Positions 3,196-29,200 of a stretch of DNA of 31,559 bases are shown one piece after another. Each line of letters begins with the position of its first letter. Position 1 is the first letter of the stretch. Both the position numbers and the translations under genes were made by a program. The stretch is taken from IMG/VR virus record IMGVR_UViG_3300031848_001226, positions 1 through 31,559 of that record. The stretch is one strand, 5' to 3'. The DNA is from a virus. Taxonomy: Duplodnaviria; Caudoviricetes. The notes under the pieces were generated by a model that worked only from the letters and a program-made list of their open reading frames with translations, was not told the origin of the DNA and did no database searches.

Positions 3196-3198
3196 GGT

Positions 3199-4429: not shown

Positions 4430-4775
4430 AGGAATGGTAGAAAAGGGCTGGGGCCATGAACTTATTTTTGCTACTAACGATAAGTATTGTGGTAAGCTTT
4501 TAAACTTTAATAAGGGTGCTAAATTCTCTATGCATTTTCATGCAATAAAGGATGAGACTTGGTTAGTGTTTGAAGGTCTATTTGATGTTTTAACTATAAA
4601 CACCGCTGATGCATCTGTTAAAAAACAAAGATTAAAGGCCGGAGATTCACTTAGAATTGAGCCATTAGTGCCACATCAATTATTTTGCATTGAAGAAGGT
4701 ACTATAATTGAAGTGTCCTCGCCAGACTCAGTTGAAGATAACTATAGAGTTGCTAAAGGCGACAGCCAAAAATGA
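4416..4775 (+). CDS. Cupin-domain protein (mannose-6-phosphate isomerase / ketol-isomerase-like)
   Basis: Start revised to ATG 4416 (AAGGA upstream). VEKGWGHE, SMHFH..KDETW and P.VPHQL cupin metal motifs; IEVS.PD..ED.YR. Confidence 0.8.
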   Translation: MARLEGMVEKGWGHELIFATNDKYCGKLLNFNKGAKFSMHFHAIKDETWLVFEGLFDVLTINTADASVKKQRLKAGDSLRIEPLVPHQLFCIEEGTIIEVSSPDSVEDNYRVAKGDSQK

Positions 4776-8071: not shown

Positions 8072-8103
8072 AAATAACTCCATAATGTTATGCAATAGAT
8101 TGG

Positions 8104-8111
8104 TATTTATA
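8104..8111 (-). promoter_or_regulatory. T4-type late promoter TATAAATA upstream of hemO-pcyX
   Basis: Exact TATAAATA on the minus strand, 32 nt upstream of the hemO ATG, the same spacing as at gp13. Confidence 0.75.
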
Positions 8112-8113
8112 CT

Positions 8114-9034
8114 ATGATTCATGTGATAGGCGATCTCATCATCGATGAGTACTGGTATGGAAATACATTACGTATATCACCAGAAGCCCCTGTACCAATA
8201 GTAGAATTAAATAGTAAAAAGATTTCACTAGGTGGTGCTGGTAATGTATATATGAATATACGTGGCATGACCAATCAAGTTACGCTAGATGCTTATTATA
8301 GCCCAGATTTTCAGTATATATTTGATGATATTGAAATGACTGGTAATCTATTACCAATAGAAAGCATGCCACACAAACTCCGCATCTTCTCAGGTTCGCA
8401 CTATGTTTCGAGAATTGATGCAGAAAAAAGAATAGAAAATAACGATGTACAAGATAAATTCTTTGTACCAAATCAATATGACATAGTTGTACTATCCGAT
8501 TATAATAAGGGAACTGTAAAAGATCCTCAAAAAATTATTAAAAAATCGAAGAGAACTATAGTCGATCCAAAGGTTTCATTAGATAGATATAGAGGCGCTT
8601 TTATATTAAAGCCAAATCTTAAAGAATTCGAAGACTATGTAGGTAAAACATTAACACCTAAGCAGTTAATGTCAGAAGCACAACGAGTAAGAAATGAACT
8701 TGATATACATCATTTCATTGTCACTCTTGGTGCAGATGGTGTACTATATGTTGGAGATACCATTGAACACTATGCGGCTACCGCACAAGAGGTGTTTGAT
8801 GTTACAGGTGCTGGAGATACTTTTACCGCTGCGTTAGCTTTCGGTATATATAATAATCTACCAGTTCAAGATGCCGTGATTGTAGCAAATAAAATGTCGG
8901 GGTTATCAGTAGCCACTTCAGGAACATATGCTATACAACCAAATCATTTTAATGAAGCGATGGATGAAATCAATGAATATATTAATAACAGGACACAAGG
9001 GATTTATCGGGAAGAATCTTTGGATTTACTTTAA
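8114..9034 (+). CDS. hldA: Heptose-7-phosphate kinase (RfaE domain I / HldA, PfkB family)
   Basis: VIGD.IIDEY.YG...RISPEAPVP, GGAGNV, LSDYNKG, VDPK, KPN..EF, VTLG..G, DVTGAGDT. Confidence 0.92.
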   Translation: MIHVIGDLIIDEYWYGNTLRISPEAPVPIVELNSKKISLGGAGNVYMNIRGMTNQVTLDAYYSPDFQYIFDDIEMTGNLLPIESMPHKLRIFSGSHYVSRIDAEKRIENNDVQDKFFVPNQYDIVVLSDYNKGTVKDPQKIIKKSKRTIVDPKVSLDRYRGAFILKPNLKEFEDYVGKTLTPKQLMSEAQRVRNELDIHHFIVTLGADGVLYVGDTIEHYAATAQEVFDVTGAGDTFTAALAFGIYNNLPVQDAVIVANKMSGLSVATSGTYAIQPNHFNEAMDEINEYINNRTQGIYREESLDLL

Positions 9035-11415: not shown

Positions 11416-13227
11416 TTAATTTGAAACTGTGATAAGCTTTCCATGCTCCGGTAAATACAGATATTCGATATCTGATTTTTCCAAAGTGTCGATAGCGTGA
11501 TCAATAGTTTCTACGAGAGGGTCTCCCCCCAAGTTAAAACTGGTATTAAACACGATAGGTACACCAGTTTTATCTTTGAATGCAGTAATCAAACGATGGT
11601 ACAAAGGATTTTGTTCCTTAGTAACAGTCTGAATACGGCATGTTCCGTCAACATGGATGATAGCCGGAATCTTTTCTTCTACTCCTGGTTGACAATTAAC
11701 CGCGTACATCATATGCGGTGTCTCATCCATTCCACGTAAATCAAACCATTCATGCACGTCTTCGGCTAGAATAGATCCAGCAAATGGTCTAAAGTATTCA
11801 CGGTTCTTTACTAGGTTGACATAATCTTTACCATCTTCAAGTGTAGGATCAAATAGAATAGATCTGTTTCCAAGCGCCCGTGGTCCATTCTCAGAACGAC
11901 CTTGGAAGACGGTTACGATGTTCTTGCTTGTAATAAGGTCAACTATGTCTTTGTCGTTAGCATCTTTCATTACAGCCGTATCACTTTTTGTTACGGCCAA
12001 TGCAATATCATCAATAGTATAATTGTGGTCTGGACCCAAATACAATGTATTAAGATCTCTATTAGTTTCGTCATCAGTACGAGCATGCCAATACATTAGG
12101 GCTGCACCCATCGCGGTACCAGCATCATTAGAAATTGGTTCTACATAAATGTTAATGCCTTCGTCTTTAAGCGCATCAAGATATTCATAGTTTGCCACAC
12201 AATTAAGTCCATATCCACCAGAGATCACTACATTCTTCGTGTCGCCCATCTCTACGGCTTTTCGGATCAGTTTAATCATTTCAGCTTGAGACTGAGTTTG
12301 AATAGCATAAGCCATATCTCTACGAGAATCGAGCTTAGTAAGATCTCCTTCTACGGCATCAAATTGCTCTGCAGTTGCTTGCAAGAAATCATAGAATCCA
12401 TCATTTACGTATGCACCATTAGGAACATTTGGAATAAACAGATTTCTATCAAATACACCAGGATGTGGTGAACGCGGATCAAACAAATTATCTAAGTCTG
12501 AGTTCTCATTGCCATATGGAAATAAGCCCATAGTTTTGCCGGCTTCTATTGGTTGCCAACCACAGTATTGCGTAACAGCCTCATATGTTTTAGTGATGCC
12601 ACCACGGTCTGAAATCATAACTTGAAACTCGCCTTCTTCACCAAATTGCTCACCACTAAATGATGCATCAGCACCAACTAATGGATCTCTGCAACCCATG
12701 TGTTTGTACAAGGTCTTAAAGTTTGCAGGGTAAGACGCCGTAATGATAGATTCATATTCCCATAGCGCAAGACCTTCACCCGTATGTGGGTTTGACACTG
12801 GTATCATTGAACCAGCACCGTCAGCAATAAGTGCTACAGCTTCCTCAAACGGAGAGCGATAGAAAGCCACTGCAGCATGCAATTTGTGATGCTGCTGAGA
12901 CATATCGATAACTTGTGGATGTGCCTGAGTCTGGATGTTTTGATCTATTAATCCAAGCTTTCTAGCAAGCCCGGTGTACACATCTTCGCCAGAAAAATCT
13001 ACTTTACCAGCAGTTTCCTGAAGTGATTGTGTGTGTGCTACTACCAAATAATCAAGCTTATCAGTGTAATCAAGAATTTTTACCATTCCTGCATATGGAC
13101 CACCGTCATACTTTCTACGAGAAAGTCGTTCTTCCTCAATAGAAAATATAATTTCACCATTCTTTAGTAGACATACACCAGCGTTATGGCCTCGTGCAAT
13201 ACCTGCAATCCAAATATCATTTTTCAT
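11416..13227 (-). CDS. Full-length O-carbamoyltransferase (NodU/CmcH/TobZ family)
   Basis: Start revised to ATG 13227. EEERLSR.K, HH.LHAA.AF, DGAG, EAGKTMGL.PYG, SGG.GLNCVAN, D.GTA.GAA, GRSE.GPRALGNRSIL, K.RE.FRPFA, HVDGTCRIQTV, NTSFNL.G.P.VE. Confidence 0.93.
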   Translation of the reverse strand: MKNDIWIAGIARGHNAGVCLLKNGEIIFSIEEERLSRRKYDGGPYAGMVKILDYTDKLDYLVVAHTQSLQETAGKVDFSGEDVYTGLARKLGLIDQNIQTQAHPQVIDMSQQHHKLHAAVAFYRSPFEEAVALIADGAGSMIPVSNPHTGEGLALWEYESIITASYPANFKTLYKHMGCRDPLVGADASFSGEQFGEEGEFQVMISDRGGITKTYEAVTQYCGWQPIEAGKTMGLFPYGNENSDLDNLFDPRSPHPGVFDRNLFIPNVPNGAYVNDGFYDFLQATAEQFDAVEGDLTKLDSRRDMAYAIQTQSQAEMIKLIRKAVEMGDTKNVVISGGYGLNCVANYEYLDALKDEGINIYVEPISNDAGTAMGAALMYWHARTDDETNRDLNTLYLGPDHNYTIDDIALAVTKSDTAVMKDANDKDIVDLITSKNIVTVFQGRSENGPRALGNRSILFDPTLEDGKDYVNLVKNREYFRPFAGSILAEDVHEWFDLRGMDETPHMMYAVNCQPGVEEKIPAIIHVDGTCRIQTVTKEQNPLYHRLITAFKDKTGVPIVFNTSFNLGGDPLVETIDHAIDTLEKSDIEYLYLPEHGKLITVSN

Positions 13228-14179
13228 TTTTACCACCCTTCGAAATAACCATATCAAGCTCTTTAGCAATCTCATTGATTGCACCTTCAGACAGCATCAT
13301 AATACCTTCATGTGCCATATGAATTTCTTCTTCAAAGGAAATGCGAATAGGATCATATTGACGGCGACCATGCCCAAGATCCAACACCTGAAAAATATCA
13401 CTATCCGGATAACTTACATTTTCTTGATATGTTGCTCCCAATACAGTTACTGATGGTGTTTTGGTTGAATACGAAAAGTGTTGGCCTACGCTATCACAAC
13501 CTAAAAAACCATTTGCTGCTTTAATTGCTGCTGCCCAAATACGTAATGGAGCACCTTCTGGTTGAGCAACTGGTTCGGTAATACCGTGCTGAGACCAATC
13601 ACCCTGAAATTCAGACATTACTACAACTGCATATTTTTTCTGTAATTTCTTTATTAATTTAATTGTATCTTGTAATCCAAATGATCTGCCACCACTATCA
13701 ACTAGGTGTTGACCTTTACTACCCATAGGCTGCGTACTACGCCCGTATGGTTGGAATACAACTACTTTTTCCTTTTTAGTTTTTTCACGAACTTCATCAA
13801 TAATATCTTGACCTTGAATCAGTTCTGTAGCAGTTAAGTATAAAGCAGGATCTTGAAGATCACGCAAGCCTTTATTATTAACTTGAATGTCAAAGGCTGA
13901 AACTAGATTTGCCTCTTGATTATAGTATTCCCAAACACGATATGGTTCAGTAGTAATACAATTTCTATGTTTGATTTTATCTTTAAATAAATTTTTATGC
14001 CAGTTATCATATGAGCGGGCATGCAAAGTCGGGTGACCTTTATACATGTCCATACCGCCCTCACAGACAATGATAAAATCATCATCAGGATTTTCGGCTT
14101 CATATTTTTCGAATGCTGGGATTGAACAGATATGTCGGCCTGCTCCACCGTTTACAAAGAACGCTGTCGATCTTGTCAT
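13217..14179 (-). CDS. GT9-like (ADP-heptose heptosyltransferase-like) GT-B glycosyltransferase
   Basis: Start revised to ATG 14179 (GAGG upstream). N-terminal GGAGRHICSIPA resembles GT9 G.GD.....P; P.LYL and VVFQP.G; LRIWAAAIKAANGFLGCDSVGQH resembles the GT9 L....A.I..A..F.G.DSG..H motif. Confidence 0.7.
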   Translation of the reverse strand: MTRSTAFFVNGGAGRHICSIPAFEKYEAENPDDDFIIVCEGGMDMYKGHPTLHARSYDNWHKNLFKDKIKHRNCITTEPYRVWEYYNQEANLVSAFDIQVNNKGLRDLQDPALYLTATELIQGQDIIDEVREKTKKEKVVVFQPYGRSTQPMGSKGQHLVDSGGRSFGLQDTIKLIKKLQKKYAVVVMSEFQGDWSQHGITEPVAQPEGAPLRIWAAAIKAANGFLGCDSVGQHFSYSTKTPSVTVLGATYQENVSYPDSDIFQVLDLGHGRRQYDPIRISFEEEIHMAHEGIMMLSEGAINEIAKELDMVISKGGKNEK

Positions 14180-14227
14180 TTTGCACCTCACAAGAATTAA
14201 TTATAAATGAATAGTCATCATCATTAT

Positions 14228-14245
14228 ACGTTTATATATAAACGT
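14228..14245. promoter_or_regulatory. Perfect 18-bp palindrome upstream of the GT9-like gene
   Basis: ACGTTTATATATAAACGT, abutting a minus-strand TATAAT (14228-14223). Confidence 0.55.
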
Positions 14246-14250
14246 TTTCA

Positions 14251-14270
14251 GAGAGCCCCGTAGGGCTCTC
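14251..14270 (-). other. Stable RNA hairpin with cUACGg tetraloop and no U-tract
   Basis: GAGAGCCC-TACG-GGGCTCTC, 6 nt after the stop of the 14277-14987 gene. Confidence 0.7.
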
Positions 14271-14276
14271 CGGTAA

Positions 14277-14987
14277 TTATCTACCTTCGGCTGCTTCGTC
14301 AGAATCTCTAGCGGCGTCTGCCACAATTTTTGCCGCAGCAATAACACCTTCGTCAGAATCATGTGGTGTCATCCTAAATGTTACTTCATGCGGAAGTAAA
14401 CTAGCCGCACTATATCCTGAAACTTTAGAAACTGCTTCTGTTTGAATGCGTGTCCATGCTACTGTAAGATCAGAATCTGCAACAACAGCATCTGTTGCTA
14501 ACCATGCGGTTGCATCTGCAGCAACATTATTTGCTTGCAAACCAACCATATTCCAATCAGTCCATGGGTGATGCCATGGATAAGGTTTCTGCCATGACCG
14601 TAATTCAGGTAAATAAGTCATAGCCGCTGCTTCATATGCCTTGTGGGGCGGAATAGGCCATGGATACTTGTACTCCAAGCCATCTGGACCAGCTTTTGTC
14701 TTCACCGACAGATCCATCATATCAGAATCTCTCATTTCCCAAAATATAGAAGCTTCTAAAGGTTGTGCCATAGCGTTAATTAAAACAGCACCCTCTTCAT
14801 CGCCTTCCGCAATCCACTCTTCAATAGTAATGGGTTGTACATTTTGTTTTTTGCCTGTTAGGTTAATATCCACCTTAAGATATGCCGGACCATGATACGT
14901 AAAGCTAGAAGAGGAATCATTTGAAGCTTCTTGTAATGTATAGTCGTCTGGCACTTTAAAGCTAAACGTTTTTGTTATCTTTGCCAT
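14277..14987 (-). CDS. Hypothetical protein, possibly a tail-fibre assembly chaperone
   Basis: Last gene after the fibre cluster; Trp/Pro-rich; C-terminal W..IQ......P.EV.F..P only loosely resembles tail assembly chaperones; four DSD motifs. Confidence 0.5.
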   Translation of the reverse strand: MAKITKTFSFKVPDDYTLQEASNDSSSSFTYHGPAYLKVDINLTGKKQNVQPITIEEWIAEGDEEGAVLINAMAQPLEASIFWEMRDSDMMDLSVKTKAGPDGLEYKYPWPIPPHKAYEAAAMTYLPELRSWQKPYPWHHPWTDWNMVGLQANNVAADATAWLATDAVVADSDLTVAWTRIQTEAVSKVSGYSAASLLPHEVTFRMTPHDSDEGVIAAAKIVADAARDSDEAAEGR

Positions 14988-14996
14988 TTTAGTTCC

Positions 14997-16061
14997 TTAT
15001 GAATAGCTTATTTTTACGAGAGGCGGACCACCAGTACTGCCGCAACAACATGTGCCGCCGCATGTCCATGTGATTAAACCTGGCATTCCAGGTACTGTTT
15101 GCGCTCCCCAAGATTGACACTGTCTGCCCATACTTTGCGAAAGATTGGAAACCATCATTCCAAACATATCTGGATGAATGTTACATTGCTTGTACATAGT
15201 CATGCCACCGTTAATCGAGACTTTTTCTTGAAATCCAGAATTCCAATGGTTTAATCCACCAGGATATGGAATAAAGTGTTTATCTCCACACCGACTAGCA
15301 TCAACATTGTCAGCGCCACAACAACCTATTTGCATACATGACCACATACCCTTAGATCCAATATCGGCTCCATAGTAATTGGCTCTTCTGTACACATCAC
15401 CAACACTATCTTCCATGGTTCTTTGTACTACATCTTTCATACAAACTGTTTTACAGCATGCTTTCGCACCCGTTATTGTCCCAAAGTAGCATACCCACCA
15501 ATTACATCTTGTTATTCCAGGATTACCACCTTCTGCACAGAAATTTGTAAGGCCAGGACCAGTAACAAAAGCTTTAGGTCCACGCTCACCTCTGTGCAAA
15601 GGCATATTTGGCCATGATCCTGCTGCTTGGTCAAGTGTCTGTCCAGCAATATTGTTGTACTGTGAACAACAAACTTTATCTAAGTCTTGGTAACATGAAC
15701 AATATACATTTCCCGCAGTAACCGCAACCTCTTTAACAGCATGGGCACCAGATCCAGCATGCATACCTTGCATACAACAATGACTCGCAGCCCCGGTACC
15801 GCCACCACCCCAAACTTTAAATGTAGCTCTAGTTACACCTGCCGGAACTTTCCATTTCCATGATGTATAGGCCGCAACATTAGTAACAGTGCCGTTTTGC
15901 CGATTACTGCCCGCAGCGTTTACTGTATCGAATCCGGCATATCTTCCACCACACGTATAATTCAATGGCCAGCTTATTTCGCTCTCCGCAGTTTCGTGTT
16001 GTTCTAAAGGTGCATCTGCTGATAAGTATTGCCCTAAAAAGACTTGTAGTTTTTTAGCCAT
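14997..16061 (-). CDS. Cys/Gly-rich putative tail-tip protein, type C2
   Basis: MAKKL start; WKVPAGVT.ATF.VWGGGG; GPGLTNFCAEGGN; TCGGTCCCG; about 23 Cys. Confidence 0.7.
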   Translation of the reverse strand: MAKKLQVFLGQYLSADAPLEQHETAESEISWPLNYTCGGRYAGFDTVNAAGSNRQNGTVTNVAAYTSWKWKVPAGVTRATFKVWGGGGTGAASHCCMQGMHAGSGAHAVKEVAVTAGNVYCSCYQDLDKVCCSQYNNIAGQTLDQAAGSWPNMPLHRGERGPKAFVTGPGLTNFCAEGGNPGITRCNWWVCYFGTITGAKACCKTVCMKDVVQRTMEDSVGDVYRRANYYGADIGSKGMWSCMQIGCCGADNVDASRCGDKHFIPYPGGLNHWNSGFQEKVSINGGMTMYKQCNIHPDMFGMMVSNLSQSMGRQCQSWGAQTVPGMPGLITWTCGGTCCCGSTGGPPLVKISYS

Positions 16062-17065
16062 TATTCTGCCTCTGCTTCATATCTAATTACTGTAATACCA
16101 GACTGTCCGGGTGCTCCGCAACAACAGTTACCACCAGTGACATTCGCACCCATATGTGATGAACCTGCCCACCAGTAATCTCCGTGAGCACCATCATGTC
16201 CATACGTACAAGCTATTGCGTTCCGTTGGTTCCATCCACCCTCACCCTCAGCACATTTAAAGAGACCAGATCTTGCTATCAAACCTTGTCTAAATGCAGA
16301 ACCTTTCCAGATTGGAGTATAATGCATACGTTGTTTATACCTGGTATCGGCGGAATTTCTGGCAATACACGATCCAACTTCATAACCTGCCGGTCCTTGG
16401 TATCTACATAAGGTAGCGTCAAATCCAGCTTCGCTACAGCCAGCCGGAGGTATTGCGGCACCAGTAGTAAAGCAAAGAGCCTCGACAGATATACCATTTT
16501 GGCAGCAACACCATTTCATCTGGTTGGTTTGAATATTCAATGCACCAAAATTACAACAGTTGAATTGGTAGTCAGCAAAACATACTGTTGTACCGCCACA
16601 CGCGCCAGACGCACATAAATTTTGTTTAATAACAGGACTAGCTTTAGTACCTGTTACATGACATAATCTCCATCCCGCAATACCCTGTCCTTGGGCCGAT
16701 TGAGGAATGCAACATTTATTTGCTGGTCTTTGACATAATTGAATATAATCACTATCACCATCAGACCATTGTGGAGTATATTTAAAACTAGCAGCATTAT
16801 AGCCCATCTGACCTTGCATACAGCAACAAGAACCACCAGCTTGTCCACCATTAGCAATTGTCCAAAGGTGAGTCTTATTTTTTATATATTTTTTACCTGA
16901 ATGAGTAGCACACTTGTCGATGAACGTATACATATTCCCATACGCTGATTCTGCGTTGCCTTCGCCCTCGTTGCCCCATGCGGATGAATATATATCCGTA
17001 TAATATTCTAATTGACTGTTCGCCTTTGCAGCGCCCGGTAAAAATGTACTTAAATTTTTTGCCAT
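16061..17065 (-). CDS. Cys/Gly-rich putative tail-tip protein, type B2
   Basis: MAKNLSTFLPG; GGSCCCMQG; GGNCCCG...VIRY; about 25 Cys. Confidence 0.7.
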   Translation of the reverse strand: MAKNLSTFLPGAAKANSQLEYYTDIYSSAWGNEGEGNAESAYGNMYTFIDKCATHSGKKYIKNKTHLWTIANGGQAGGSCCCMQGQMGYNAASFKYTPQWSDGDSDYIQLCQRPANKCCIPQSAQGQGIAGWRLCHVTGTKASPVIKQNLCASGACGGTTVCFADYQFNCCNFGALNIQTNQMKWCCCQNGISVEALCFTTGAAIPPAGCSEAGFDATLCRYQGPAGYEVGSCIARNSADTRYKQRMHYTPIWKGSAFRQGLIARSGLFKCAEGEGGWNQRNAIACTYGHDGAHGDYWWAGSSHMGANVTGGNCCCGAPGQSGITVIRYEAEAE

Positions 17066-17076
17066 TTTTCTTAATC

Positions 17077-18003
17077 CTATTCAGCGAATGTGTTACAGCA
17101 AGAAAATGATATTCTAGCTCGGCCTGAAGTATTTCCGTTACTACAACACGCTGTTGAACCCGCGCAATCAATAGGACTTGGAACTCCCCAACCTGCCATT
17201 TTTCCATAGCCATTTGTGTTGCCAGGGGCTGTTCCGCCACCTTCGGTACCATGTCTCATAGCCGCGACTGACCAAAGATTGTCGATAGCTTTACAAGAAC
17301 ACCAACTGTTACCCATCGCGTGAATAACATGGTGACCGCCGCATTTATTAATTTGTCCACCTGGATATGGAATCCCTTGTCTGTAGTTAGCCCATTCATT
17401 CACTGTTAAGGCTGAATCCATTAGTTCAATCCAACCTGCACGACCTCTTTGACCGCAATCGCCTCCAAAAAATCTTGCGCCTTCGCCAGCAGAATCTTGA
17501 AATACATATTTCAAAGTCGATCCTGTTGCTGTATCACAACACTTAGCAACTGCCATACATCCTTGTTCGGCACAGAAATTTGTAAGACCGGTACCAGTAG
17601 CCCAAGAATTAAAATTTGCAACTGTACATACAGAGTGTTTAACAGTATTAGACCCACCGCTTGGTGGTCTTGTGCAATAATTCCATCCCAAATGGATTCG
17701 GTAGCACTCACCAGGAACAGTTGTTATCATCTTTGAAACATATGCACCTGAACCAGAAGGTCCGGCCAACGTACAATTACATGCTCCAGCACCATTTCCG
17801 CCTGCACCCCAAAGTTCAATCCTTGCACAGGTGATACCTGTTGGAACACACCAAAAAGGTTCATGGTTGAAATTGTAACAACCTTTATCGCCTGCATCGA
17901 CAATCGTTGGCATATAATCCCAAACGCACATAGGATTTAGTCCGGTGGTCTTAGGCCCACCTGCGCCGATAGATCTTACGAATGATGTTAAATTCTTTGC
18001 CAT
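17077..18003 (-). CDS. Cys/Gly-rich putative tail-tip protein, type A2
   Basis: MAKNLTSFVRSIG; WCVPTGIT.A; TGTGLTNFCAE; KCGGH; about 22 Cys. Confidence 0.7.
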   Translation of the reverse strand: MAKNLTSFVRSIGAGGPKTTGLNPMCVWDYMPTIVDAGDKGCYNFNHEPFWCVPTGITCARIELWGAGGNGAGACNCTLAGPSGSGAYVSKMITTVPGECYRIHLGWNYCTRPPSGGSNTVKHSVCTVANFNSWATGTGLTNFCAEQGCMAVAKCCDTATGSTLKYVFQDSAGEGARFFGGDCGQRGRAGWIELMDSALTVNEWANYRQGIPYPGGQINKCGGHHVIHAMGNSWCSCKAIDNLWSVAAMRHGTEGGGTAPGNTNGYGKMAGWGVPSPIDCAGSTACCSNGNTSGRARISFSCCNTFAE

Positions 18004-18011
18004 GTCAAATC

Positions 18012-19151
18012 CTATTTATACGTAATTACTGTCAAACCAGATCCGCCATAACCGCCGCAGCAACAAGTGCCGCCACAGGTAAATGCCGTTAATCCACCCC
18101 AACCGATTGCACCGCCGCCGTCGTCATAATTATATTTTGCACCACCTATTGGTCCAAGAGATTGTTGTCTGTCAGCTGTGCCATGGGGTCCAAATAAACC
18201 CCAATCGTTGTTGGTGCAGCTTCGATAGTTGCTACTGAAAGTTTGGCCATACTTGACAGAATTTGTGCCTTCCCACCATTTAGCACCACTAATTGCATGC
18301 CATTTTCTATCACCGGATTGATTGCAAGCGGCTACTTCCCAGCAACCACAGCAACTTAATTGATAACATGAATATGTACCCCTAGCGCCATCATCGCCGC
18401 CATAATATCTAGCTTTTCTAAAAAAACCAGCATCACTATCAGTTTCTTGGCCCCTAAGATCACACATACGAAATGTTTGATTACAACAATTTAATACTCC
18501 ATAGCCGCTATTAGGTCCACCGGTTCTTGCAATGCATCGTGTACATAAATTATACAGCATTTTATAAAGGCTTAATCCGCCATTACCACCTTCTGCACAG
18601 AAATTTGTAAGGCCAGGACCGACAATAGAAACATCAGGACCTCGACAACCACAAAGGGTATCAAACTTATCCACTGCTGTTACATCCCACGTACCAGCCG
18701 TGCCAGGAGCAGTACCAAGACCAGTGCCTCCGCCGTTTACGTTATATTCACTTGCTTGTTTTGAAGCTGCAGCTGAAGCGCAGTTTCTTGAACCGGCAGT
18801 ACCATTAGCAGTTAAACAAATAATATATCTACTTGAGCCCGGAGTAAATCCGGTTTTTAATTTTTTTGTTACCCACGAACCAGATCCACCGTCAATACCT
18901 TGTGTACAGCAAACACCTGGAGCACCAGATCCACCGCCGCCCCATGCATGAAAATTAATTTCAGTGACGCCTGTCGGAACTTTCCATATAGCTTTTTGGC
19001 CACCACCGTCGGTAGCACTACCATGAGTGCTAATGTGCGTAACGTTTGGAATATTGGTGTTATTTGAAAACCACCAAACATTATCTCCATGATCAGCCTC
19101 ATCAAAGGTTCCTGGCGCAATAGGTATAAGGTCTTGTAAATTTTTAGCCAT
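18012..19151 (-). CDS. Cys/Gly-rich putative tail-tip protein, type C1
   Basis: MAKNLQ; WKVPTGVT...F.AWGGGG; GPGLTNFCAEGGN; TCGGTCCCG; about 22 Cys. Confidence 0.7.
   Translation of the reverse strand: MAKNLQDLIPIAPGTFDEADHGDNVWWFSNNTNIPNVTHISTHGSATDGGGQKAIWKVPTGVTEINFHAWGGGGSGAPGVCCTQGIDGGSGSWVTKKLKTGFTPGSSRYIICLTANGTAGSRNCASAAASKQASEYNVNGGGTGLGTAPGTAGTWDVTAVDKFDTLCGCRGPDVSIVGPGLTNFCAEGGNGGLSLYKMLYNLCTRCIARTGGPNSGYGVLNCCNQTFRMCDLRGQETDSDAGFFRKARYYGGDDGARGTYSCYQLSCCGCWEVAACNQSGDRKWHAISGAKWWEGTNSVKYGQTFSSNYRSCTNNDWGLFGPHGTADRQQSLGPIGGAKYNYDDGGGAIGWGGLTAFTCGGTCCCGGYGGSGLTVITYK
18013..18020 (-). promoter_or_regulatory. TATAAATA late-promoter motif formed by the Tyr-Lys-stop codons of C1
   Basis: TAT AAA TAG; 9 nt upstream of the A2 start. 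Confidence 0.55.
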
Positions 19152-19175
19152 TATATTTTTCCATATCTCTTTACC

Positions 19176-20165
19176 TTATTTATACCTGATTGTAACAACA
19201 GCTTGGCCTCCTGAGCCGCCGCAATAGCAGTTGCCACCCTCTGAACCACCTACAAGTGGACCCATGCCACCCGCACATATTGCGCCGGCTCGACCATAAG
19301 CATTGACGCCTCTACTCCACAGAGTTAAGTAATTACAATCTGCTCCAGAGCCTGTCCAATTGGCGGTAAAGTTTGCGGGAGCCGCCACATAATGACTTTT
19401 GGTAGTGTCGAAGTGTTGTATAGGAACTACGTGTTGTATAGCACAAGCGGCACCAAGTGTCGAAGCACCAGAGCATGGCATGATTGTAAATCCTGAGCGG
19501 GATTGGAACATATCTACATCAGAATCAAGCGTACCATCAGTTAGTGCTGTATGACTAGTACCAGAATATTTCATACAGTTTTTGCATGTAAACCTACTAG
19601 TATTATCAAAGTTCTTTTTTGAATGCCAATCCTTTGCACATGTAAAGGCCCCGCAAGCTGTGTCAAATCGTGTTTGTCCACTTACATTACAACATGTACC
19701 CCAATTACAAAATGACCCACTACAAGATGCTCCAGATAAATGCAGATATTCGCAACCAGAAGCACCATTCACAGTCCTGTTATAAACCCTCAAGTAACAC
19801 GCTTGCTGTCCATTAACATCAGCAATGCAACAACCGCCAGCAGACATACAGAATTGCCATTCGTCACCAACAGTCATAGTAGGGCATATTACAGCAGACA
19901 TACCACTGTTTCCGGGTGATCCTCTCATACAGCAGCAAGTACCTCCGCTGCTGTTTCCAGAAGATCTTATATAAAATTCGGCTTTTGTCACGCCTGTTGG
20001 GACAGTCCAATTAGCTTGATTACTACCATAATTTGGATCCCTTGGACCAGGACCATATGAGTGACAACCATTCCCGGTTGTAAATGTCATTTGACACCAA
20101 GGATTTGCCCCTTCTGATTGGGACCGTCCTGAACCAGGCTGAAATGTTACTAAATTTTTAGCCAT
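19176..20165 (-). CDS. Cys/Gly-rich putative tail-tip protein, type B1
   Basis: MAKNLVTFQPG; WTVPTGVT.A.F; GGTCCCMRG; GGNCYCG...TIRYK; about 25 Cys. Confidence 0.7.
   Translation of the reverse strand: MAKNLVTFQPGSGRSQSEGANPWCQMTFTTGNGCHSYGPGPRDPNYGSNQANWTVPTGVTKAEFYIRSSGNSSGGTCCCMRGSPGNSGMSAVICPTMTVGDEWQFCMSAGGCCIADVNGQQACYLRVYNRTVNGASGCEYLHLSGASCSGSFCNWGTCCNVSGQTRFDTACGAFTCAKDWHSKKNFDNTSRFTCKNCMKYSGTSHTALTDGTLDSDVDMFQSRSGFTIMPCSGASTLGAACAIQHVVPIQHFDTTKSHYVAAPANFTANWTGSGADCNYLTLWSRGVNAYGRAGAICAGGMGPLVGGSEGGNCYCGGSGGQAVVTIRYK
19177..19184 (-). promoter_or_regulatory. TATAAATA late-promoter motif formed by the Tyr-Lys-stop codons of B1
   Basis: TAT AAA TAA; 25 nt upstream of the C1 start. 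Confidence 0.6.
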
Positions 20166-20177
20166 TCTAGATTTTCC

Positions 20178-21095
20178 TCAACTGAATAGTACTCTTACTT
20201 TGCCACCATTGGCCATATTACCACAAACGCAAGTACCACCACAAACCGAGGCTCCTGTGCCGCCCATTCCAGCTGTATCCCACATTTGTGCATTTGTATC
20301 ATCACTCAAATGATTGTTATAACAGACGCCAAGGTCCAGCTGTATGCCCAACTGTTTGTTAGATGCTCCGCAGTGAGTATGGTTGCCGCAAGCTGCTACA
20401 AGTATGTGACCACCACATTTTCCCCAGCCGCTACAATTTGGAAGAGCTTGATTAAACCTAAAATTGCATTGTGCAGTGCCAATACCAAGGCTATTAGTAG
20501 TCATATAAGATTTTCTACCTCTTAAACCTTTATCAGCACCATAATAACAAGCGCGATTTGCACCAAGGGCAGAATCTCCTTGTGAATAATAATGAGTTTC
20601 ACTATCAAGAAGAGTTGTGCCATAGTTAGTTGTGGTGCAACATTCAAAAGGTGTATTGTAACCAGGTTCTGCACAAAAGTTTGTTAGTCCAGTACCTGTA
20701 ACAGATGTTGTACCATGTACTAGATCTTTATTAGTAATTCCCCATGCAGAAGCACCGCCGGCGTTTGTATGCGGACAGCGACAATGTCTTTGCCCGGTTT
20801 GGACTTTATAACATTGGCCAGCCGTAACACTTATTGTTTTCTCAGCATATGCTCCGGTTTGACCAGGTGCACTAAAACCACAACCTGTTAAACCTTCTGA
20901 TTGACCTCCAGAACCCCATATTTGGAATTTTGCAGTAGTAATACCGACTGGAACACACCACATTGCAATATGCTTGAAACAAGTACAGGCTGATGCATTG
21001 GCGTTATAGCCAACAAAATCTAAAATATGATCTTCGTATTTTAGTCCGCCACCTCCGCCTATTGATTTGACATATAGTTTTAAATTTTTTGCCAT
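20178..21095 (-). CDS. Cys/Gly-rich putative tail-tip protein, type A1
   Basis: MAKNLKLYVKSIG; WCVPVGIT.A.F.IWG; TGTGLTNFCAE; KCGGH; about 20 Cys. Confidence 0.7.
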   Translation of the reverse strand: MAKNLKLYVKSIGGGGGLKYEDHILDFVGYNANASACTCFKHIAMWCVPVGITTAKFQIWGSGGQSEGLTGCGFSAPGQTGAYAEKTISVTAGQCYKVQTGQRHCRCPHTNAGGASAWGITNKDLVHGTTSVTGTGLTNFCAEPGYNTPFECCTTTNYGTTLLDSETHYYSQGDSALGANRACYYGADKGLRGRKSYMTTNSLGIGTAQCNFRFNQALPNCSGWGKCGGHILVAACGNHTHCGASNKQLGIQLDLGVCYNNHLSDDTNAQMWDTAGMGGTGASVCGGTCVCGNMANGGKVRVLFS

Positions 21096-21119
21096 GTTGA
21101 TGTTCCTATTATTACCAAA

Positions 21120-21545
21120 TTAACCTTGAACCAGGAACTGCCAACCATAAGTATCGCCGGACCAAACAATTGTTACAGCAATACCTTGAGTATTAACAAG
21201 AATATCACTATCCTGTCCTAGAATTTTATTTCCAGTTGCAGGAGAAATAGTAAAGTTGTTTGTTTGAAATTTTTGTGCTAGATCAACAAAAGAGACTCTA
21301 CCATCGCCAGCAATATTACTCGTCATAGGAGGAAGTGTTGCTTTTACTGCGGCGGCAGTTGTATTTACAAAGTGACCACCATAACTATCAGCAGTAAAAT
21401 CAACAGCATCAGTCGACCATGCGGTTGACTGTTCGATGCCATTTGCTGCCTTTGTAAGGTATGCCAGTTGCTCTGGTGTTGCGGACGCAATCGAAGTATT
21501 GATTTTGTCCAGGAGTGCATTACGTACAGTATCAATGCTTGCCAT
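21120..21545 (-). CDS. Small tail-fibre-associated protein
   Basis: Helical N-terminus plus the TLP....GD..V.F.D....F.TNN.TI.....I.G...D......V.....GW module common in marine phage fibres. Confidence 0.65.
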   Translation of the reverse strand: MASIDTVRNALLDKINTSIASATPEQLAYLTKAANGIEQSTAWSTDAVDFTADSYGGHFVNTTAAAVKATLPPMTSNIAGDGRVSFVDLAQKFQTNNFTISPATGNKILGQDSDILVNTQGIAVTIVWSGDTYGWQFLVQG

Positions 21546-21573
21546 TTTTTAATATCCTTTTCCGTGGTTATCT

Positions 21574-24500
21574 TTATTTAAGATTTTTACCATCATTTTT
21601 AGTTAAGTCTTTAATGTCAAATCCTAGGAACGCTTCGGTAGCTAATCCCCCGGCTTTAGCGTTTTTGGGTAGCGACTGTGAAGATGCTCCTTCAATTGCC
21701 AAATCGACATATGTTTTTACAGCTTGTTCGGTTGGAACAGCCAAGTTTGAATTGCCTGACAAAGTGCCATCTGCCGAAAACTCATTAATCGCTTCACCGA
21801 GTTGAGCACCAATCGAACCAAGTCTCAGAGATGTCAGACCAGAAAGGTCAAACGCTGAGGCGTCCAATGTTGCTCGGCCTGTCGCCTGATCAATCCTGAA
21901 GTAGTTACCTACTCTAAAGTTACCAGATTGGTCAGTTGACACATAGAATACTCGGCCAGTATTTCTTTCAATAACCTCATTGCCTTGTTTAACAGGAAGT
22001 GACGGAGCACCTGGATAGTTAGTTTCAGTTTTATCACCAAAACCAATATTCAAGAAGTCATGACCAGTTAGTCTTGCTTGTGAGTATTTATAACGAATTT
22101 TTACCGCTTGTCCGTTAGGTGCTGGACGTGTGTTTAATTTTTGCTGGGCAAAGACTAGGACGGCATTACCAGTAGATGAGTCATAATCACCAACTGATTG
22201 TATAACATATGAGCCAACAGAGTCATAACCAGAATCACCAACGTTACCAATGAATTCAACTGAACCACCAGTTTTTGGTTTTGATCCCGTAAGACCGGTA
22301 AATGACATTGTAGCACCATACTGATTGTGTGCAGCATTAGAGGCAGTCAATATAGCAAATACGCTAGCAGCATTACCTGAGTCGATTATTGAGTCTCCGT
22401 CATCGAAGCCTGTTCCAACAATATTGGTAATAGTTAGTTTATTTGCACCAGGTTGGTGGTCAATAATAAGAGCCTTAGTACCTAGAAGTGTGCCTGATCC
22501 AGAGATTAATTCATCACCAGAATCTGTTTTTCTAAGTTGTCCACCAGAACTATATACTGAGTATGAAGTAGCATCTACATCACCAGGTGCAGCAACTGTA
22601 ATTGTACCGTATGTTGAAGCAGTATTACCATTTGCATAATACAATGTGCTTGGAGCACTACTATCAATCGTAATGGCTAGTCTGCCACCACCAATTGCTC
22701 TTGATCCGGTAACGCCTGTCGTATATTCACCGGTGTATTGAAGAGCTCCCCAACTAGAGGCCGGATTAGTGGTTGTTAGATAGAAGCCAGCTGTATTTGT
22801 TGAATCAACATTAAAGTAATAACGCGATCCTTTATAAAGTGTCAGTCCAGGTTCTACTGCTGCAGAGTGTGCAGTTCCACCGGCCGTGCCAGTAATTACA
22901 TAATTAGTAGATGCAGTTGCAACACCAATATAGTTATTCTCAGCCTGCTTAAGTTTGATAATAGAAGAAGTATTATCCATTACAAGGAAATAACGATCAT
23001 TAGCTTGTGTCATGCCGCCAACACCTTGGATACGAATCAAGTCGTATGAATCTAAAGCGTGCGAAGCAACCGTAACTGCCATTGGGTTTGAACGTGTAAT
23101 GTCTGAGATAGATGTGTTAGTTACTACTCGTCCACCCCATGCTTCACCTGATACCGATGCATTAAGCGCCGCATTAGAATAAAGGTTGAAGGAATATGAG
23201 TCTTGTACGTCAGCATAATATTGACTAGCATTTGGCTGTGAACCAGAATTCCAACTAATAGGAAGTAAGCTGCCGAATTTAACTCTATGTCCGTCTGTAA
23301 CACCGTGTGCCACTGTTGTTGTAACTCTAGCCGGATCAGTCTTAGAGATTGTATTTAGAGCTTTAGTTCTATCTTGTGCTCTAACAATTCCGCCTTTTGT
23401 AAACTCACCGTTTTTAATACTTGTTTCTACATAATCAAGGTTATAACCACGAACCGAACCGTTAAGTGTAGCTTCGCTTGAATCATTACCTGTTGAGATT
23501 GTACCATATTCGCCGTAAGAGTTATTACCGTTAAGGGATCTAATTTGACCACCACCAGAAGATGCATAACCAATATCACAATAATAAGTAAAGCAAGATA
23601 CGATCTCAGCTTTACCATTACGTCTTACCCAGAAACCAACTCCGCCAGAGTGGATTTGAGTAAATGTGTGGAACACCATCGAACCAGCATTGTTTGCGTT
23701 ATTATTCAAACCACCATCAATAAGACAGCCAATACCACCAATAGAGAATGCTGAACATTCTTTAATGTATGGAGATTTAGTAATAACTGCTGTTGGGTCT
23801 AGTCTAAAGAATACACCACCAATTGTTGCTTGTTCAATGTCTTCTGGAACAGAGCCATGAAGAGCAAACCCGGTAAGACCGGTAAATTTAATCTCTTTAA
23901 TAAGAACGCCACTATTCACAAAGAACATTGTTTTGCTTGAGTCACCAGCAATTGGTGAAATCGTAGTATTACGTTGACCATCACCAAATACTGTTGTATC
24001 TGCCGGGATTGTCATTGGCAACGCTTCTCTATACTCACCATCTTTAATAAAGACCTGAGCCGAAGAGTCAGCAGTTTTTTCTGCAGCAATACGCGTCATA
24101 CAATATGCAACTGAAGCAAATGGTCGTTGAAGTGATCTACCTGCAAAGGAGTCATCAACCGCACCATCAATACCAACGTAGTATGTATTTGGAGAGTTAT
24201 CTGTATAACCTAATTCAAAGCCAGATCCATCCGTTTTAACAACCAATGATTTACCAACATCGATACCAGTAATTCCTGGTAGTACGCCTGCAGCGCCTGA
24301 AGCAAATATTGTCCATTTACCGGCTGCTGCATCGGTCGCAAAGTTAGCGGTTGATGTATAATCACTTGCTGCAATGTATGTTGATGTACCAGATTGAATA
24401 AGGTCGTTTTTAAGATATAATGTTGAAGCGACCCAAGTACCTCTATTACGAACACCTTGAGCAAACTCTGCCAATTTACCAGCAGAAAGATCAGTCGCAA

Positions 24501-25545
24501 ATGTCGCGGAAGTATGAGAAGTTGAAACTGTATAAGTTGAACCGCCATGCTGAACAAGATCACCCGGATAATAAGCAGTTGATGTTACCCAAGTTCCTTG
24601 ATTGGTAATACCAGAAGATACGTGAATCCATGTGGCTGCGTTAGATGACGGTGAAATGTTTGTGCTTGTAATCTTAGCTTGGTAAAGATTACCACCGTTT
24701 GTTACTAGCTCACCAGGATAATACTTACGAGCAGTATTCCATGTACCGACATAAGAGAAACCACTTAGGAATGAATCCCAATAAATTGTATTAAGAGGAT
24801 GCGTTCCAGTAATATCACCTTTAGCTTTAAAGAGATTTGCACCAAAAAGTACAATGTCATCTTTAACATAAGTGTTAGCAGAATCAAATGAATCTCTTAG
24901 ATTTAGACCAGCAAGGAATGTGTTCCAATTAGGAGCGCCGGCAGAAGGCTTAGTTCCGGCAGAAGTGTCTTGTAACGCACTGTATGTTGTTCCGCCATAG
25001 GTGACAATATCACCTTTTTTATAAGCGGTTGCATTGTTATAAGTTCCAAGCACCGATAAACCATCAGCAAATACTGACCATTGCGCACCAGAAGAAGAAG
25101 GTGTATTGCCCGTTGTATCTTGAAGGGCAATATACGATTTGCCACCGTATGTTACAATGTCAGCTTTCTGATAAGCCGTAGCACTTGCCCATACGCCTTC
25201 GAACTGAAGACCATCAACAAATGTTGAGTAGTAAGATGCATTAGGTGGTGATTGGCCGACAACAGTATTTGCTGTAACGATGTAAACAATGCCGCCATGC
25301 GAAAACGCATCACCGATATTATATGTTGTTCCTGTGCTGAAGACGCCTTCAAAGTTGAAGCCCTCCATCATCAGATCCCAATAAGTTACATTGGTAGGAA
25401 CGTTTCCTGCTGTGGCTAATCCGTATGTGTATACATATACGTTGCCACCATATTTGATTACATCGTTTACTTCGTACGTTGTCGCACCAGAGTAAACACC
25501 TTTGTATTCAAATCTAATTTTACCTAAGTCGATAATTGTTGCCAT
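21574..25545 (-). CDS. Large tail fibre/spike protein (1323 aa): 8 N-terminal carbohydrate-binding-like repeats, beta-helix-like middle, beta-rich modules
   Basis: Eight ~50-aa repeats G.W.....Y...D.V.(Y/H)GG..Y.A......P......W; PF.SV...I..G.Y.E..P..IP....V.GD entry motif of pectin-lyase-like folds; C-terminal FS.D..L..NS..AVPTEQAVKTYVD. Confidence 0.8.
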   Translation of the reverse strand: MATIIDLGKIRFEYKGVYSGATTYEVNDVIKYGGNVYVYTYGLATAGNVPTNVTYWDLMMEGFNFEGVFSTGTTYNIGDAFSHGGIVYIVTANTVVGQSPPNASYYSTFVDGLQFEGVWASATAYQKADIVTYGGKSYIALQDTTGNTPSSSGAQWSVFADGLSVLGTYNNATAYKKGDIVTYGGTTYSALQDTSAGTKPSAGAPNWNTFLAGLNLRDSFDSANTYVKDDIVLFGANLFKAKGDITGTHPLNTIYWDSFLSGFSYVGTWNTARKYYPGELVTNGGNLYQAKITSTNISPSSNAATWIHVSSGITNQGTWVTSTAYYPGDLVQHGGSTYTVSTSHTSATFATDLSAGKLAEFAQGVRNRGTWVASTLYLKNDLIQSGTSTYIAASDYTSTANFATDAAAGKWTIFASGAAGVLPGITGIDVGKSLVVKTDGSGFELGYTDNSPNTYYVGIDGAVDDSFAGRSLQRPFASVAYCMTRIAAEKTADSSAQVFIKDGEYREALPMTIPADTTVFGDGQRNTTISPIAGDSSKTMFFVNSGVLIKEIKFTGLTGFALHGSVPEDIEQATIGGVFFRLDPTAVITKSPYIKECSAFSIGGIGCLIDGGLNNNANNAGSMVFHTFTQIHSGGVGFWVRRNGKAEIVSCFTYYCDIGYASSGGGQIRSLNGNNSYGEYGTISTGNDSSEATLNGSVRGYNLDYVETSIKNGEFTKGGIVRAQDRTKALNTISKTDPARVTTTVAHGVTDGHRVKFGSLLPISWNSGSQPNASQYYADVQDSYSFNLYSNAALNASVSGEAWGGRVVTNTSISDITRSNPMAVTVASHALDSYDLIRIQGVGGMTQANDRYFLVMDNTSSIIKLKQAENNYIGVATASTNYVITGTAGGTAHSAAVEPGLTLYKGSRYYFNVDSTNTAGFYLTTTNPASSWGALQYTGEYTTGVTGSRAIGGGRLAITIDSSAPSTLYYANGNTASTYGTITVAAPGDVDATSYSVYSSGGQLRKTDSGDELISGSGTLLGTKALIIDHQPGANKLTITNIVGTGFDDGDSIIDSGNAASVFAILTASNAAHNQYGATMSFTGLTGSKPKTGGSVEFIGNVGDSGYDSVGSYVIQSVGDYDSSTGNAVLVFAQQKLNTRPAPNGQAVKIRYKYSQARLTGHDFLNIGFGDKTETNYPGAPSLPVKQGNEVIERNTGRVFYVSTDQSGNFRVGNYFRIDQATGRATLDASAFDLSGLTSLRLGSIGAQLGEAINEFSADGTLSGNSNLAVPTEQAVKTYVDLAIEGASSQSLPKNAKAGGLATEAFLGFDIKDLTKNDGKNLK

Positions 25546-26261: not shown

Positions 26262-29200
26262 CTACAGATTAATATAACCAAATATACTGCTTCCGCCACC
26301 ACCGCCACCAACAACAGATGCTAATGTGTTAAGACTCATTTTTCTCAGTCTTCCACTAGTTCCACTATATATCATCATGCTTTCTTGTGCAGCGACAAAT
26401 GAGTCAATACCCACTTCATCTAATCCAGTAATATGTCTTTTATGTAATCTAAGTCCGCCCTTTGTTCCATAAGCAGAATCCCATACCGCATCACCAAAGC
26501 TATCGGCATTATCTTTAAAGTGTTTATACCATTCAGTTTCTGACGGACCAGTGTATGTAAACACACCACTAGCAGAATCATATGCCATCGATCCATCGCC
26601 ACCAGCATCTGTTAATGATAAGTGAGTTCGAGTTTCTAATGCAGAAGGACCTGTATATGATATAACACCTGTTGCGGCATTATATGACATGGATCCGTCA
26701 CCACCATTATCGGTAACGGAAATGTGTGCCCGAGCTTCGGCAGGACTAGGTCCCGTGTACGTCATTGCACCTGAAGCGGAATCATATACGAATGATCCGT
26801 CACCGCCAGCATCTGTTACCGTAATACTTGATCGTGCACGGCCATTTGTGAAATATAGATTACTGCCTTCTGCCAAACCTGTTGTACTGTGGTTTGATAT
26901 ATCGGATACTTGACCAGTTACGTTTCCTGTAACATTACCTGTTACATCACCGTAAAAACTATCTGCTTGGATATTGCGATTGAATACAAATCTTTGTGTA
27001 GAATGGGCATATGTAAACGTAGGTTTGTCTACAATGTTTGTTCCGCCGATAGTTAATCCAGCGCCGTTGAGGGCAGATGAATCTGCTGCACTATCAGCTA
27101 ATACAATGTTCTTATCATTAAGACTTATTGCAGTAGAATTAATAGTTGTTTGTACACCTTCGACTTGAAGGTTACCAAGAATTCTTACTGTACCAGTTGC
27201 ATCGCCGTGGGCGGCCGGATCAATAATAAAATCTGCAGGGCCTCGTAACGTGCCGGTCTGTATTATATTATTAAAAGTAACATTACTGGTTGAGTCTAGC
27301 GCTTGATTTGTAGATATAGTACCAGTACTAGCATTATATGTTAAACTCTGACCAGCATTGATATATGATCTAATAGTAGCAGTAGAAGTTGTATCACCTA
27401 GAGCACTATCAAATCGGGCTCGTGTATAGTATTGATTAGAACCTTCTGACAATGTCGATGTTGTAAATGGATCGAGTGTTACTTTGTTATAAAAGTTTCC
27501 TGCACCTGTGACGATGGTTTGCTGACCAGTTGACGAGTCAAACGTAAAGTTGGAAACTGCTGCAATAGTAAGAGTGCCGATACTATCGATTTGACCTAAT
27601 GAATCCACTGACAATCGAACTGCTTCTGTTGCAGATCCATATGTGCCTGCAGTTACACCTGAAGATGTAATTCGATATATGCCATTAGTATTATCGTAGG
27701 ATAATCCAGGACCAGCAGAAAGAATACCTTTCATTTCCGCAGAGTCAGGTAGTGCGTCAATAAGTTTGTTTATTGAGTCAATTGTCTTACCAGTCATATC
27801 ACCCGGAATATACAAACCAGTATTTGTAGCAAAGTAATCATTAGCTACGCTATAAGCAAAATATTTCGCATTTGACCCGCCACCAATCTGAAAACCACCA
27901 GCTTGGTAGTTAGTAGTATTACTATCATCAACCGCAAAAATAATTCTATTGTCTGTTGTATGAAGAAACTGAGTGTCGAGTAGGATACGCTCTGATGTAC
28001 CTTTTAAAGTAATAGCTTTACCAGTAATAGTAATATTACTTGAGTCCGTCAATGAGCTTATTGTACCGACATTTAACTTAGTGTTGGCATTAACTATACC
28101 TGAAGTTAATTGACCTGTAACAATACTACCAGTTACAATATTTGCAGAGCTGTCAAGTCTAAATGTGCCGGTTGATTGATTATAGTCTAATCCTAATCCA
28201 CCGCTAAAGTGCGCTCGTGCTTCAGTAGGACTAGGGCCGGTATATGTAAACACACCGCCTGATTCAAAGTATGTAAATGAGCCATCTCCACCAGCGTCAA
28301 CAGCACTTACCTTTGCGCGTAGTCCTAAATCCGATGGACCGGTATAAGCAAACACACCTGTAGCTTGATTGTACGCAAGCGATGTTCCACCTTGGTTATC
28401 TGAAGTAACACTGAATAGAGCTCTGACACTATCATCTTCTAACTTAAGTGTAAACTGACCTTTACTAGAATCAAGAGTAAGTTTACCCATTGATAGGGGA
28501 TCAGTCCTAGCCGATAATGTTCCAGCAATATCAGTATCACTTGGTCCTGTATATGTAACTTGACCTGTGCCTTGATTGTACGCAAGCGATCCTAGACCAC
28601 CAGCATCAACAAAACTCATTGAATTACGAATATCAGAATCACGTGTGCCAAATATTACTACTTCGCCAGTTGCTTGATTAAACGTTACTGTTCCATATTC
28701 ATTGACATTATTAATTGAGTCTGCATCATGTCTAAAGCTAATAGCATGACGTGCATCTGAGTCTTGGTAATGTGCACCTGTTGTGATACTAAATTGACCA
28801 GTACCAGAATTATATGCTAGATCACCGGATGCAGATAACAACCCACGAATGTCAGCGTCTGTTCGTTTAGAATAACTAAATTGGCCTGTTGTCTGATTGT
28901 ATGCCAAATCACCGGAGGCAGACAAAGATCCTCTTATGTCAGAGTCTGTAACCTTTGTAAAGGCAAATTGTCCGGCAGCAGCATTATAAGCAAGTGAACC
29001 ATAATCACCGGCGTCGTTTGTAACAGAAAATAGTGCTCGAGTAACTGCAGAATCAGTTACATCCACCGATCCGAGATCAACAGAAAATACACCAGTACCA
29101 GTATCGTAACCAAGGTCGCCAGAGACATTAAAAAGCCCTCGTATTTGTGCATCAGTCTTTTGTGTAAAGTTAATAACACCAGTATTTTGATTGTATGTAA

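Follow-up and report, generated by a model that had tools for sequence, protein, structure and literature searches.

The window analysed here, a 31,559-nucleotide (nt) stretch of DNA from an uncultured marine T4-like myophage to which all positions refer, carries on its minus strand an array of six paralogous, cysteine-rich genes in the order A-B-C-A-B-C. We propose, at a probability of roughly 0.55, that the encoded proteins assemble into fibre heads that are 1:1:1 heterotrimers and exist in alternative versions, B being the variable slot, since a three-slot heterotrimer accounts jointly for the mode of three gene copies per array, the retention of all three classes, and the amplification of B. 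We infer the trimer, its register, its docking, and its binding to a receptor from comparison of sequences and from a predicted fold.

In transcription order, the array comprises gene 1 (class A1 fibre-head paralogue; 20178..21095, 305 amino acids (aa)), gene 2 (class B1, the fast-evolving class; 19176..20165, 329 aa), gene 3 (class C1; 18012..19151, 379 aa), gene 4 (class A2; 17077..18003, 308 aa), gene 5 (class B2; 16061..17065, 334 aa), and gene 6 (class C2; 14997..16061, 354 aa), all on the minus strand. The six open reading frames (ORFs) are separated by 12, 24, 8, 11 and −1 nt, and 9 nt separate the array from the next gene. They lie where the sequence-only reading had placed them, and its start-to-start distances within pairs (3092, 3100 and 3090 bp) follow from the ORF coordinates. 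Four contigs of the independent run X7 cover 14358-21521 except for 42 bases with zero differences, indicating that the array is no assembly artefact, and an identical protein is present on contigs up to 153 kb. The proteins contain 5.8-7.6% Cys (about 21-33 residues per chain) and 13-19% Gly. Five of the six match PHROG 4205, a family of unknown function (E values of 7e-22, 8e-4, 2e-23 and 3e-25 for genes 1 to 4), while gene 5, without a PHROG match, is recognised by the family profile (E 1e-36). A Pfam scan gave no match for any of the six, and the PF21722 (Gly_rich_2) profile matched none of them at E ≤ 0.01; a precomputed PF21722 match is carried by 4/39 homologues of gene 6, and an Atlas cluster with 17% carriers was matched at 0.94. 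Searching the PDB by sequence yielded no credible match, the two rows obtained having E values of 0.65-0.9.

The pairing of genes 1/4, 2/5 and 3/6 is borne out by phylogeny, in which, with relatives included, each class forms a clade with a bootstrap of 100. BLASTP within pairs yields 36% identity for 1/4 (E 6e-30) and 34% for 3/6 (E 1e-35), and is weak by itself for 2/5 (30% over 128 aa, E 4e-7). All 12 shared motifs tested occur in exactly the genes for which they had been named, with two corrections of detail: the MAKNL start is present in five of the six proteins, gene 6 starting MAKKL, and the motif given as GGNC.CG..IRY is found in the named genes with a spacing from CG to IRY of up to 9 residues, not 2.

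The three classes follow a strict order across this lineage. In an IQ-TREE phylogeny of 67 rows (11 of the 18 classified lineage loci plus three outside loci), a single branch sets each class apart from all other rows, and its bootstrap/SH-aLRT (approximate likelihood-ratio test) values are 100/99 for A, 100/100 for B and 100/98 for C, a split not matched by any of 200 label shuffles; a FastTree phylogeny with 110 rows agrees on the three classes. The lineage comprises 40 loci, classified with profiles trained on 18 of them, and 24 are complete: 14 ABCABC, 8 ABBC, 1 ABBBC and 1 ABBBBC, corresponding to 16 distinct arrays (7, 7, 1 and 1, respectively). Every complete locus begins with A, ends with C, has A and C at 1:1, and contains at least two B genes, and none of the 24 reads plain ABC or lacks a class, in line with the earlier A/B/C reading. 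The 16 loci that are cut off conform to these orders except L192 (B, B, C, where both B are fragments, 158 and 110 aa long). In L117, copy 2 starts with GTG and is intact. As a held-out check, profiles built from ABCABC loci only agree with the tree for 39/39 proteins of the sister lineage.

Class B is distinguished from A and C by its divergence and by its N-terminus. B is the least conserved class in 26/28 and 34/36 locus pairs, which are not independent of one another (means of 47/46% for A, 35/36% for B and 44/44% for C), and in ABBC loci the values are 58% for A, 41/42% for B and 62% for C. An N-terminal x-PG motif is present in 36/39 B, 1/26 A and 0/27 C proteins. In the sister lineage, the B copies fall into a clade of their own (100/100), indicating that at least two versions were reached twice, by triplet doubling in the one case and by B multiplication in the other; this agrees with the earlier idea of alternative versions. 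As for the origin of ABCABC, the IQ-TREE phylogeny supports B1 and B2 clades and not the equivalent clades for A and C.

To place these arrays in the wider family, which has 474 cluster representatives at E ≤ 1e-10, we examined 243 stretches (the window, four annotated records and 238 fetched loci, with L181 dropped as the window itself), of which 239 hold the family and 190 a complete array. Repeat fetches of the same contig were frequent, and counts are therefore given for 102 clusters at 80% identity. Three of these distinct arrays have one copy, 11 have two, 72 have three, seven have four, one has five, and eight have six; the 13 arrays fetched by a neighbour gene alone have one (3), two (1), three (7) or six (2) copies. 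Three is the modal copy number, not a law. The rule that copy numbers are only divisors of six, which fitted the first 38 loci, fell to the seven distinct four-copy arrays and the one five-copy array, and A/B/C do not hold as universal classes, as 0/86 arrays of three or fewer copies read A-B-C under the lineage profiles. In a FastTree phylogeny of 322 proteins, three groups whose paralogues all lie in a clade of their own are still three-copy (shares of 15/15 with support 1.0, 10/10 with 0.91, and 7/8 with 1.0), which suggests that several lineages arrived at three separately, a pattern that homogenisation within arrays could mimic. Position-specific pairs account for 85/105, 11/21, 39/45, 36/36, 66/66 and 55/55 in six triplet groups, where chance is 1 in 6. 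One-copy arrays whose head has 15% Cys (L018, 2153-4356) are preceded by a 733-aa protein that ends in a coiled-coil-like tail, a possible resemblance to self-cleaving fibre chaperones.

The structural evidence comes from an AlphaFold2 monomer model of gene 6 only, computed from 73 sequences, with a predicted local distance difference test score (pLDDT) of 76 and a predicted template-modelling (TM) score of 0.82. The model comprises a TNF-like sandwich with an inserted glycine-rich lattice, as in gp24, the fibre protein of cyanophage Pam3. Specifically, it matches the Pam3 fibre structure 7YPX in Foldseek (E 4e-5, TM 0.33/0.44) and gp24 in VIA (Z 13.3, root-mean-square deviation 3.4, 192 residues aligned), consistent with the fibre-tip, receptor-binding type of fold that had been suggested from sequence. 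Weaker VIA matches are to a chain of the Bxb1 tail tip (Z 10.8), to the glycine-rich domain of ALK (Z 8.5), and to TNF/C1q (about 4), and the first unrelated row has a Z of 4.8. S16 gp38 is not among the fold matches listed, by which a relation to gp38 is not excluded. Classes A and B are tied to gene 6 by the common family profile.

The genes flanking the array fit a fibre module. Upstream, on the minus strand, are a long tail fibre protein (21574..25545, 1323 aa; phrog_9851, E 1e-207) with CBM5/12 repeats and a 141-aa candidate fibre-tip adaptor (21120..21545). Identity of the adaptor within the lineage is 84-89%; in some relatives the same domain forms the end of the long fibre, and a relative matches PF07880 (E 2e-4, short of the curated cut-off). 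Downstream, also on the minus strand, are gene X (14277..14987, 236 aa), likely a tail-fibre assembly chaperone, a glycosyltransferase-like gene (13217..14191; phrog_8954), and a NodU-type carbamoyltransferase identified by Pfam (11416..13284), the last two being co-inherited with the array. Gene X itself has no direct Pfam match; 13/36 of its relatives pass the PF16778 cut-off and three more match below it, and profile alignment of the lineage's gene X with a PF16778-type group (12 sequences, of which 11 passed the cut-off and one was not scanned) gives 99.7% over 212 columns. Its predicted model (pLDDT 91) has a beta domain followed by helices. PF01075 is matched weakly by 8/11 relatives of the glycosyltransferase-like gene, none at the cut-off; the gene appears GT9-like in type, and heptose-pathway genes are often nearby too.

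The module usually runs from the long fibre through small genes to the heads, which are followed by X, the glycosyltransferase-like gene and the carbamoyltransferase. Ahead of the heads, the adaptor domain is encoded by a separate gene in 65/102 clusters, an undercount owing to a tie rule in scoring, whereas in 16/102 it terminates a longer ORF, two of these being complete fibres. With clusters fetched through a neighbour gene left out, gene X follows the last head in 73/82 clusters with room to look, and the remaining nine are F-X-F arrays, where F denotes a head gene. Among 82 distinct arrays in clusters fetched otherwise than through these neighbour genes, the glycosyltransferase-like gene lies at most 4.5 kb past the array in 80 and the carbamoyltransferase in 81; a carbamoylated sugar made by the phage and placed on the fibre is a possibility. 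The arrays of this lineage have one adaptor gene and one probable chaperone gene for four to six heads.

In the assembly that we propose, a trimeric chaperone X would hold one head chain per arm, following the 3:3 binding of gp24 by gp25 in Pam3, and the A-B-C register would be set by the interfaces and by class-specific N-terminal peptides. The shared MAKNL start could dock onto the conserved 141-aa tip adaptor, while distal loops would bind the host surface, with most of the variation supplied by B. Alternative heads would be gained by duplicating the whole triplet, as in this window, or B alone, as in the sister lineage.

Several observations weigh against this proposal. The nearest solved relative, Pam3 gp24, is a homotrimer, and it trimerises mostly via a long N-terminal helix bundle, with loose head-head contact (PMC9608196). 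The gene 6 monomer model has no such bundle, having only a helix at residues 3-9 (seven residues, pLDDT 50-60) ahead of a gp24 match that begins at residue 25, and this makes a straightforward Pam3-type arrangement less likely. The expectation that copy number comes in multiples of three fails, as 22/102 distinct arrays have 1, 2, 4 or 5 copies; the model absorbs any copy number, making the counts a weak test, and sampling by head motifs favours multi-copy arrays. The non-independence of the locus pairs tempers the low conservation of B. Fold searches with the gene X model found no match, including to Pam3 gp25 (best Foldseek E 0.22; best VIA Z 6.0, helical only). Furthermore, 10 arrays read F-X-F, 10 F-X-F-F-X, and 6 F-X-F-(gene)-F-X, and these 26 arrays fit separate head-plus-chaperone units. 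F-X-F and F-X-F-gene-F-X arrays (6902-9768 of L003, which is P-SSM2; L054, L068, L071, L096) are mostly without a recognisable adaptor gene directly upstream and may represent a different assembly mode.

In a rival reading, every gene would encode a separate homotrimeric head of the Pam3 kind, and several head types would sit on different fibres and use one common chaperone. The homotrimeric state of gp24, the existence of one-copy arrays (3/102), and the resemblance of the X-interspersed arrays to repeated head-chaperone units speak for this, but it does not account for the halt of separate expansions at three copies, for the presence of every class in all 16 distinct arrays, or for the constant 1:1 of A and C while only B multiplies; on balance, we regard it as improbable. 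The short conserved N-terminal peptide without a long helix would also suit monomeric adhesins like gp38 of T2 and S16, three of which would plug their N-terminal peptides into the three sites of an adaptor trimer with little head-head contact. The conservation of the adaptor, and its fusion to the fibre end in 16 arrays, agree with such docking, and gp38 is described as docking through its N-terminus (PMC3157838) and as monomeric (PMC12032242); yet three equal sockets need not take one of each class, and the best fold match is gp24, leaving this arrangement unlikely.

That the proteins serve something other than receptor binding, as metal- or disulfide-loaded decorations or as a scaffold for a ligand or shield built by the linked glycosyltransferase and carbamoyltransferase, would make sense of the high Cys content and of the two sugar genes that follow nearly every array. 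However, the predicted fold and the probable chaperone type resemble those of host-recognition fibres, and position and divergence are typical of a host-recognition cluster (PMC7029224), so we consider this very unlikely. A fixed heterohexamer, or any other fixed ring with one subunit per gene, draws on the ABCABC order kept in 14 complete loci and can be set aside as highly improbable, because sister arrays (ABBC, ABBBC, ABBBBC) have four, five or six genes with two to four B and a single A and C.

For the proposed heterotrimeric heads, a source of further variation may lie in exchange between paralogues. Gene 3 contains a 39-nt tract (GPGLTNFCAEGGN codons; 18582..18620, minus strand) identical to one in gene 6 (15522..15560, minus strand), a candidate gene-conversion tract, and similar tracts of 30-54 nt occur in L182, L184, L189, L116, L117 and L223, some between different classes. 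Within loci, synonymous identity at the motif is 0.59 versus 0.47 ± 0.02 for permuted labels (0/1000; 46 genes, 17 loci), and it is 0.46 away from the motif, pointing to conversion between paralogues at the shared motif. Long shared DNA in L189 (copies 4-5 and 5-6), L195 (4-5), L115 (5-6), L117 (3-4) and L063 proved to be ORF-overlap artefacts.

A tentative extension is that class-locked A, B and C slots are filled from interchangeable paralogues, giving a combinatorial receptor-binding head. If true, the six genes of the window would yield up to eight head types, with chains of both triplets mixing; sister phages would hold A and C constant and draw B from two to four fast-evolving copies; and gene conversion at the shared motif would add shuffling. 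Mixed tips on one virion would then arise without inversion or a retroelement, in cultured marine cyanophages and their uncultured relatives.

A search of 14200-21600 found no long inverted repeat (nine pairs, the longest 28 nt at 71%), and none of 30 window proteins scanned is a recombinase, so that nothing points to an inversion switch. Eight runs yielded no joint from which a triplet length is missing; contigs of X7 stop at the 39-nt repeat, and such a deletion could go unseen there. RNA-library contigs of one study derive from relatives, all below 99% identity, and give no evidence of transcription here. A TATAAATA box lies 25 nt before gene 3 (19177..19184, minus strand), overlapping the last codons of gene 2. 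We take TATAAATA to be the T4 late-promoter consensus. Seven such boxes are on the minus strand (19177-19184, 18013-18020, 30490, 26248, 22092, 8111, 3991) versus one on the plus strand. A TATAAATA-like box is located 17-43 nt upstream of a class C gene in 5/9 ABCABC loci and 6/9 A-Bn-C loci, and is non-coding in four of the six A-Bn-C loci having one.

The wider content of the window, as judged from its genes, identifies it as the host-recognition region of a T4-like myophage. Genes for gp13, gp14, gp15 and the small terminase are located at 1182-3951 and fibre and sugar genes at 4028-30089, so that fibre and sugar genes lie upstream of the neck genes gp13/gp14, as in the host-recognition cluster used for comparison (PMC7029224). 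The nearest record by gp15 has 52% identity. The region also encodes a haem oxygenase, a bilin reductase, heptose-pathway-like genes, and two carbamoyltransferases. The ferredoxin-dependent bilin reductase and haem oxygenase form a pair at 6829-8122, present likewise in L005, L006, L012 and L038. The second carbamoyltransferase gene (4772-5650), on the opposite strand and with the N-terminal part only, is beside cupin, cytidylyltransferase and aminotransferase genes. Asp-Ser occurs 63 times in 12 virion-like proteins versus 29 expected, with 50 of these in two long fibres (21574-25545, 26262-30089); the counts are 5 versus 1.4 expected in gene X, and 7 versus 11 in nine enzymes.

For abundant marine T4-like phages, among them the cultured S-CAM1, S-CAM3 and P-SSM2, our analysis offers an identity that can be tested for a block of hypothetical genes within the host-recognition island. 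Should the heads prove to be slot-specific heterotrimers, these phages would vary their host range through the choice of subunits, and host specificity would best be sought in the B genes.

A literature search, outside which most subscription papers fall, listed no paper that deals with the family or with a heterotrimer of such a fold; the main-text portions of PMC3037559 contained no virion proteome of a module-bearing phage, and the heterotrimers in the available parts of PMC13450770 and PMC10966104 are baseplate wedges. In the cyanophages S-CAM1, S-CAM3 and P-SSM2, unannotated tandem PHROG 4205 genes belong to the same family and gene neighbourhood, although they number two or three and their triplets do not correspond to the A/B/C classes. 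In S-SSM7 and Sf-FS3, the equivalent position is occupied by three genes of 260-265 aa, candidate members by their location. The globular head of complement C1q, an animal protein, is assembled from three paralogues, A, B and C, at 1:1:1. With a Z of about 4 for the TNF/C1q-like sandwich, in the range of common arrangements, this likeness is an analogy only.

Among phage proteins, gp38 of T2/T6/S16-type phages is comparable to the heads as a glycine-rich protein, encoded apart from the long fibre whose tip it forms, with conserved motifs between variable segments, and the exchange near conserved motifs in gp38 can be likened to the candidate conversion tract found here (PMC3157838); gp38 differs in being single-copy and monomeric, with no TNF-like domain (PMC9608196). 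The Pam3 system, in which a gp24 trimer is bound 3:3 by the Tfa-like chaperone gp25 (PMC9608196, PMC9942802; structures 7YPX and 7YFW), shares the predicted TNF-like plus glycine-rich fold and the myophage fibre context, and its chaperone gene has a probable counterpart in gene X. However, Pam3 has a single gene, a homotrimer, and a long N-terminal helix bundle bound directly to the baseplate, whereas in the arrays described here 3-6 diverged paralogues with 6-9% Cys fall into fixed classes, their N-terminal peptide is short, and the long fibre and the adaptor are separate.

The closest parallels in gene organisation are two solved 1:1:1 heterotrimers of mycobacteriophages, Jabs ORF60-61-62, with one common fold and a proposed role as receptor binder (bioRxiv 10.64898/2026.07.24.740622), and Mysterious gp35-36-37, from three adjacent genes (PMC13252515). 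Like these modules, the arrays described here keep together three adjacent genes, of one predicted fold. Jabs and Mysterious are siphophages, with other beta-sandwich folds bound to the baseplate core, whereas we infer the trimer in our system, and the sections available do not mention alternative versions or an amplified slot. Three-gene phage heterotrimers are already known in another fold; for the arrays described here, the A-Bn-C pattern gives the idea of a heterotrimer a more precise form but is no proof of it.

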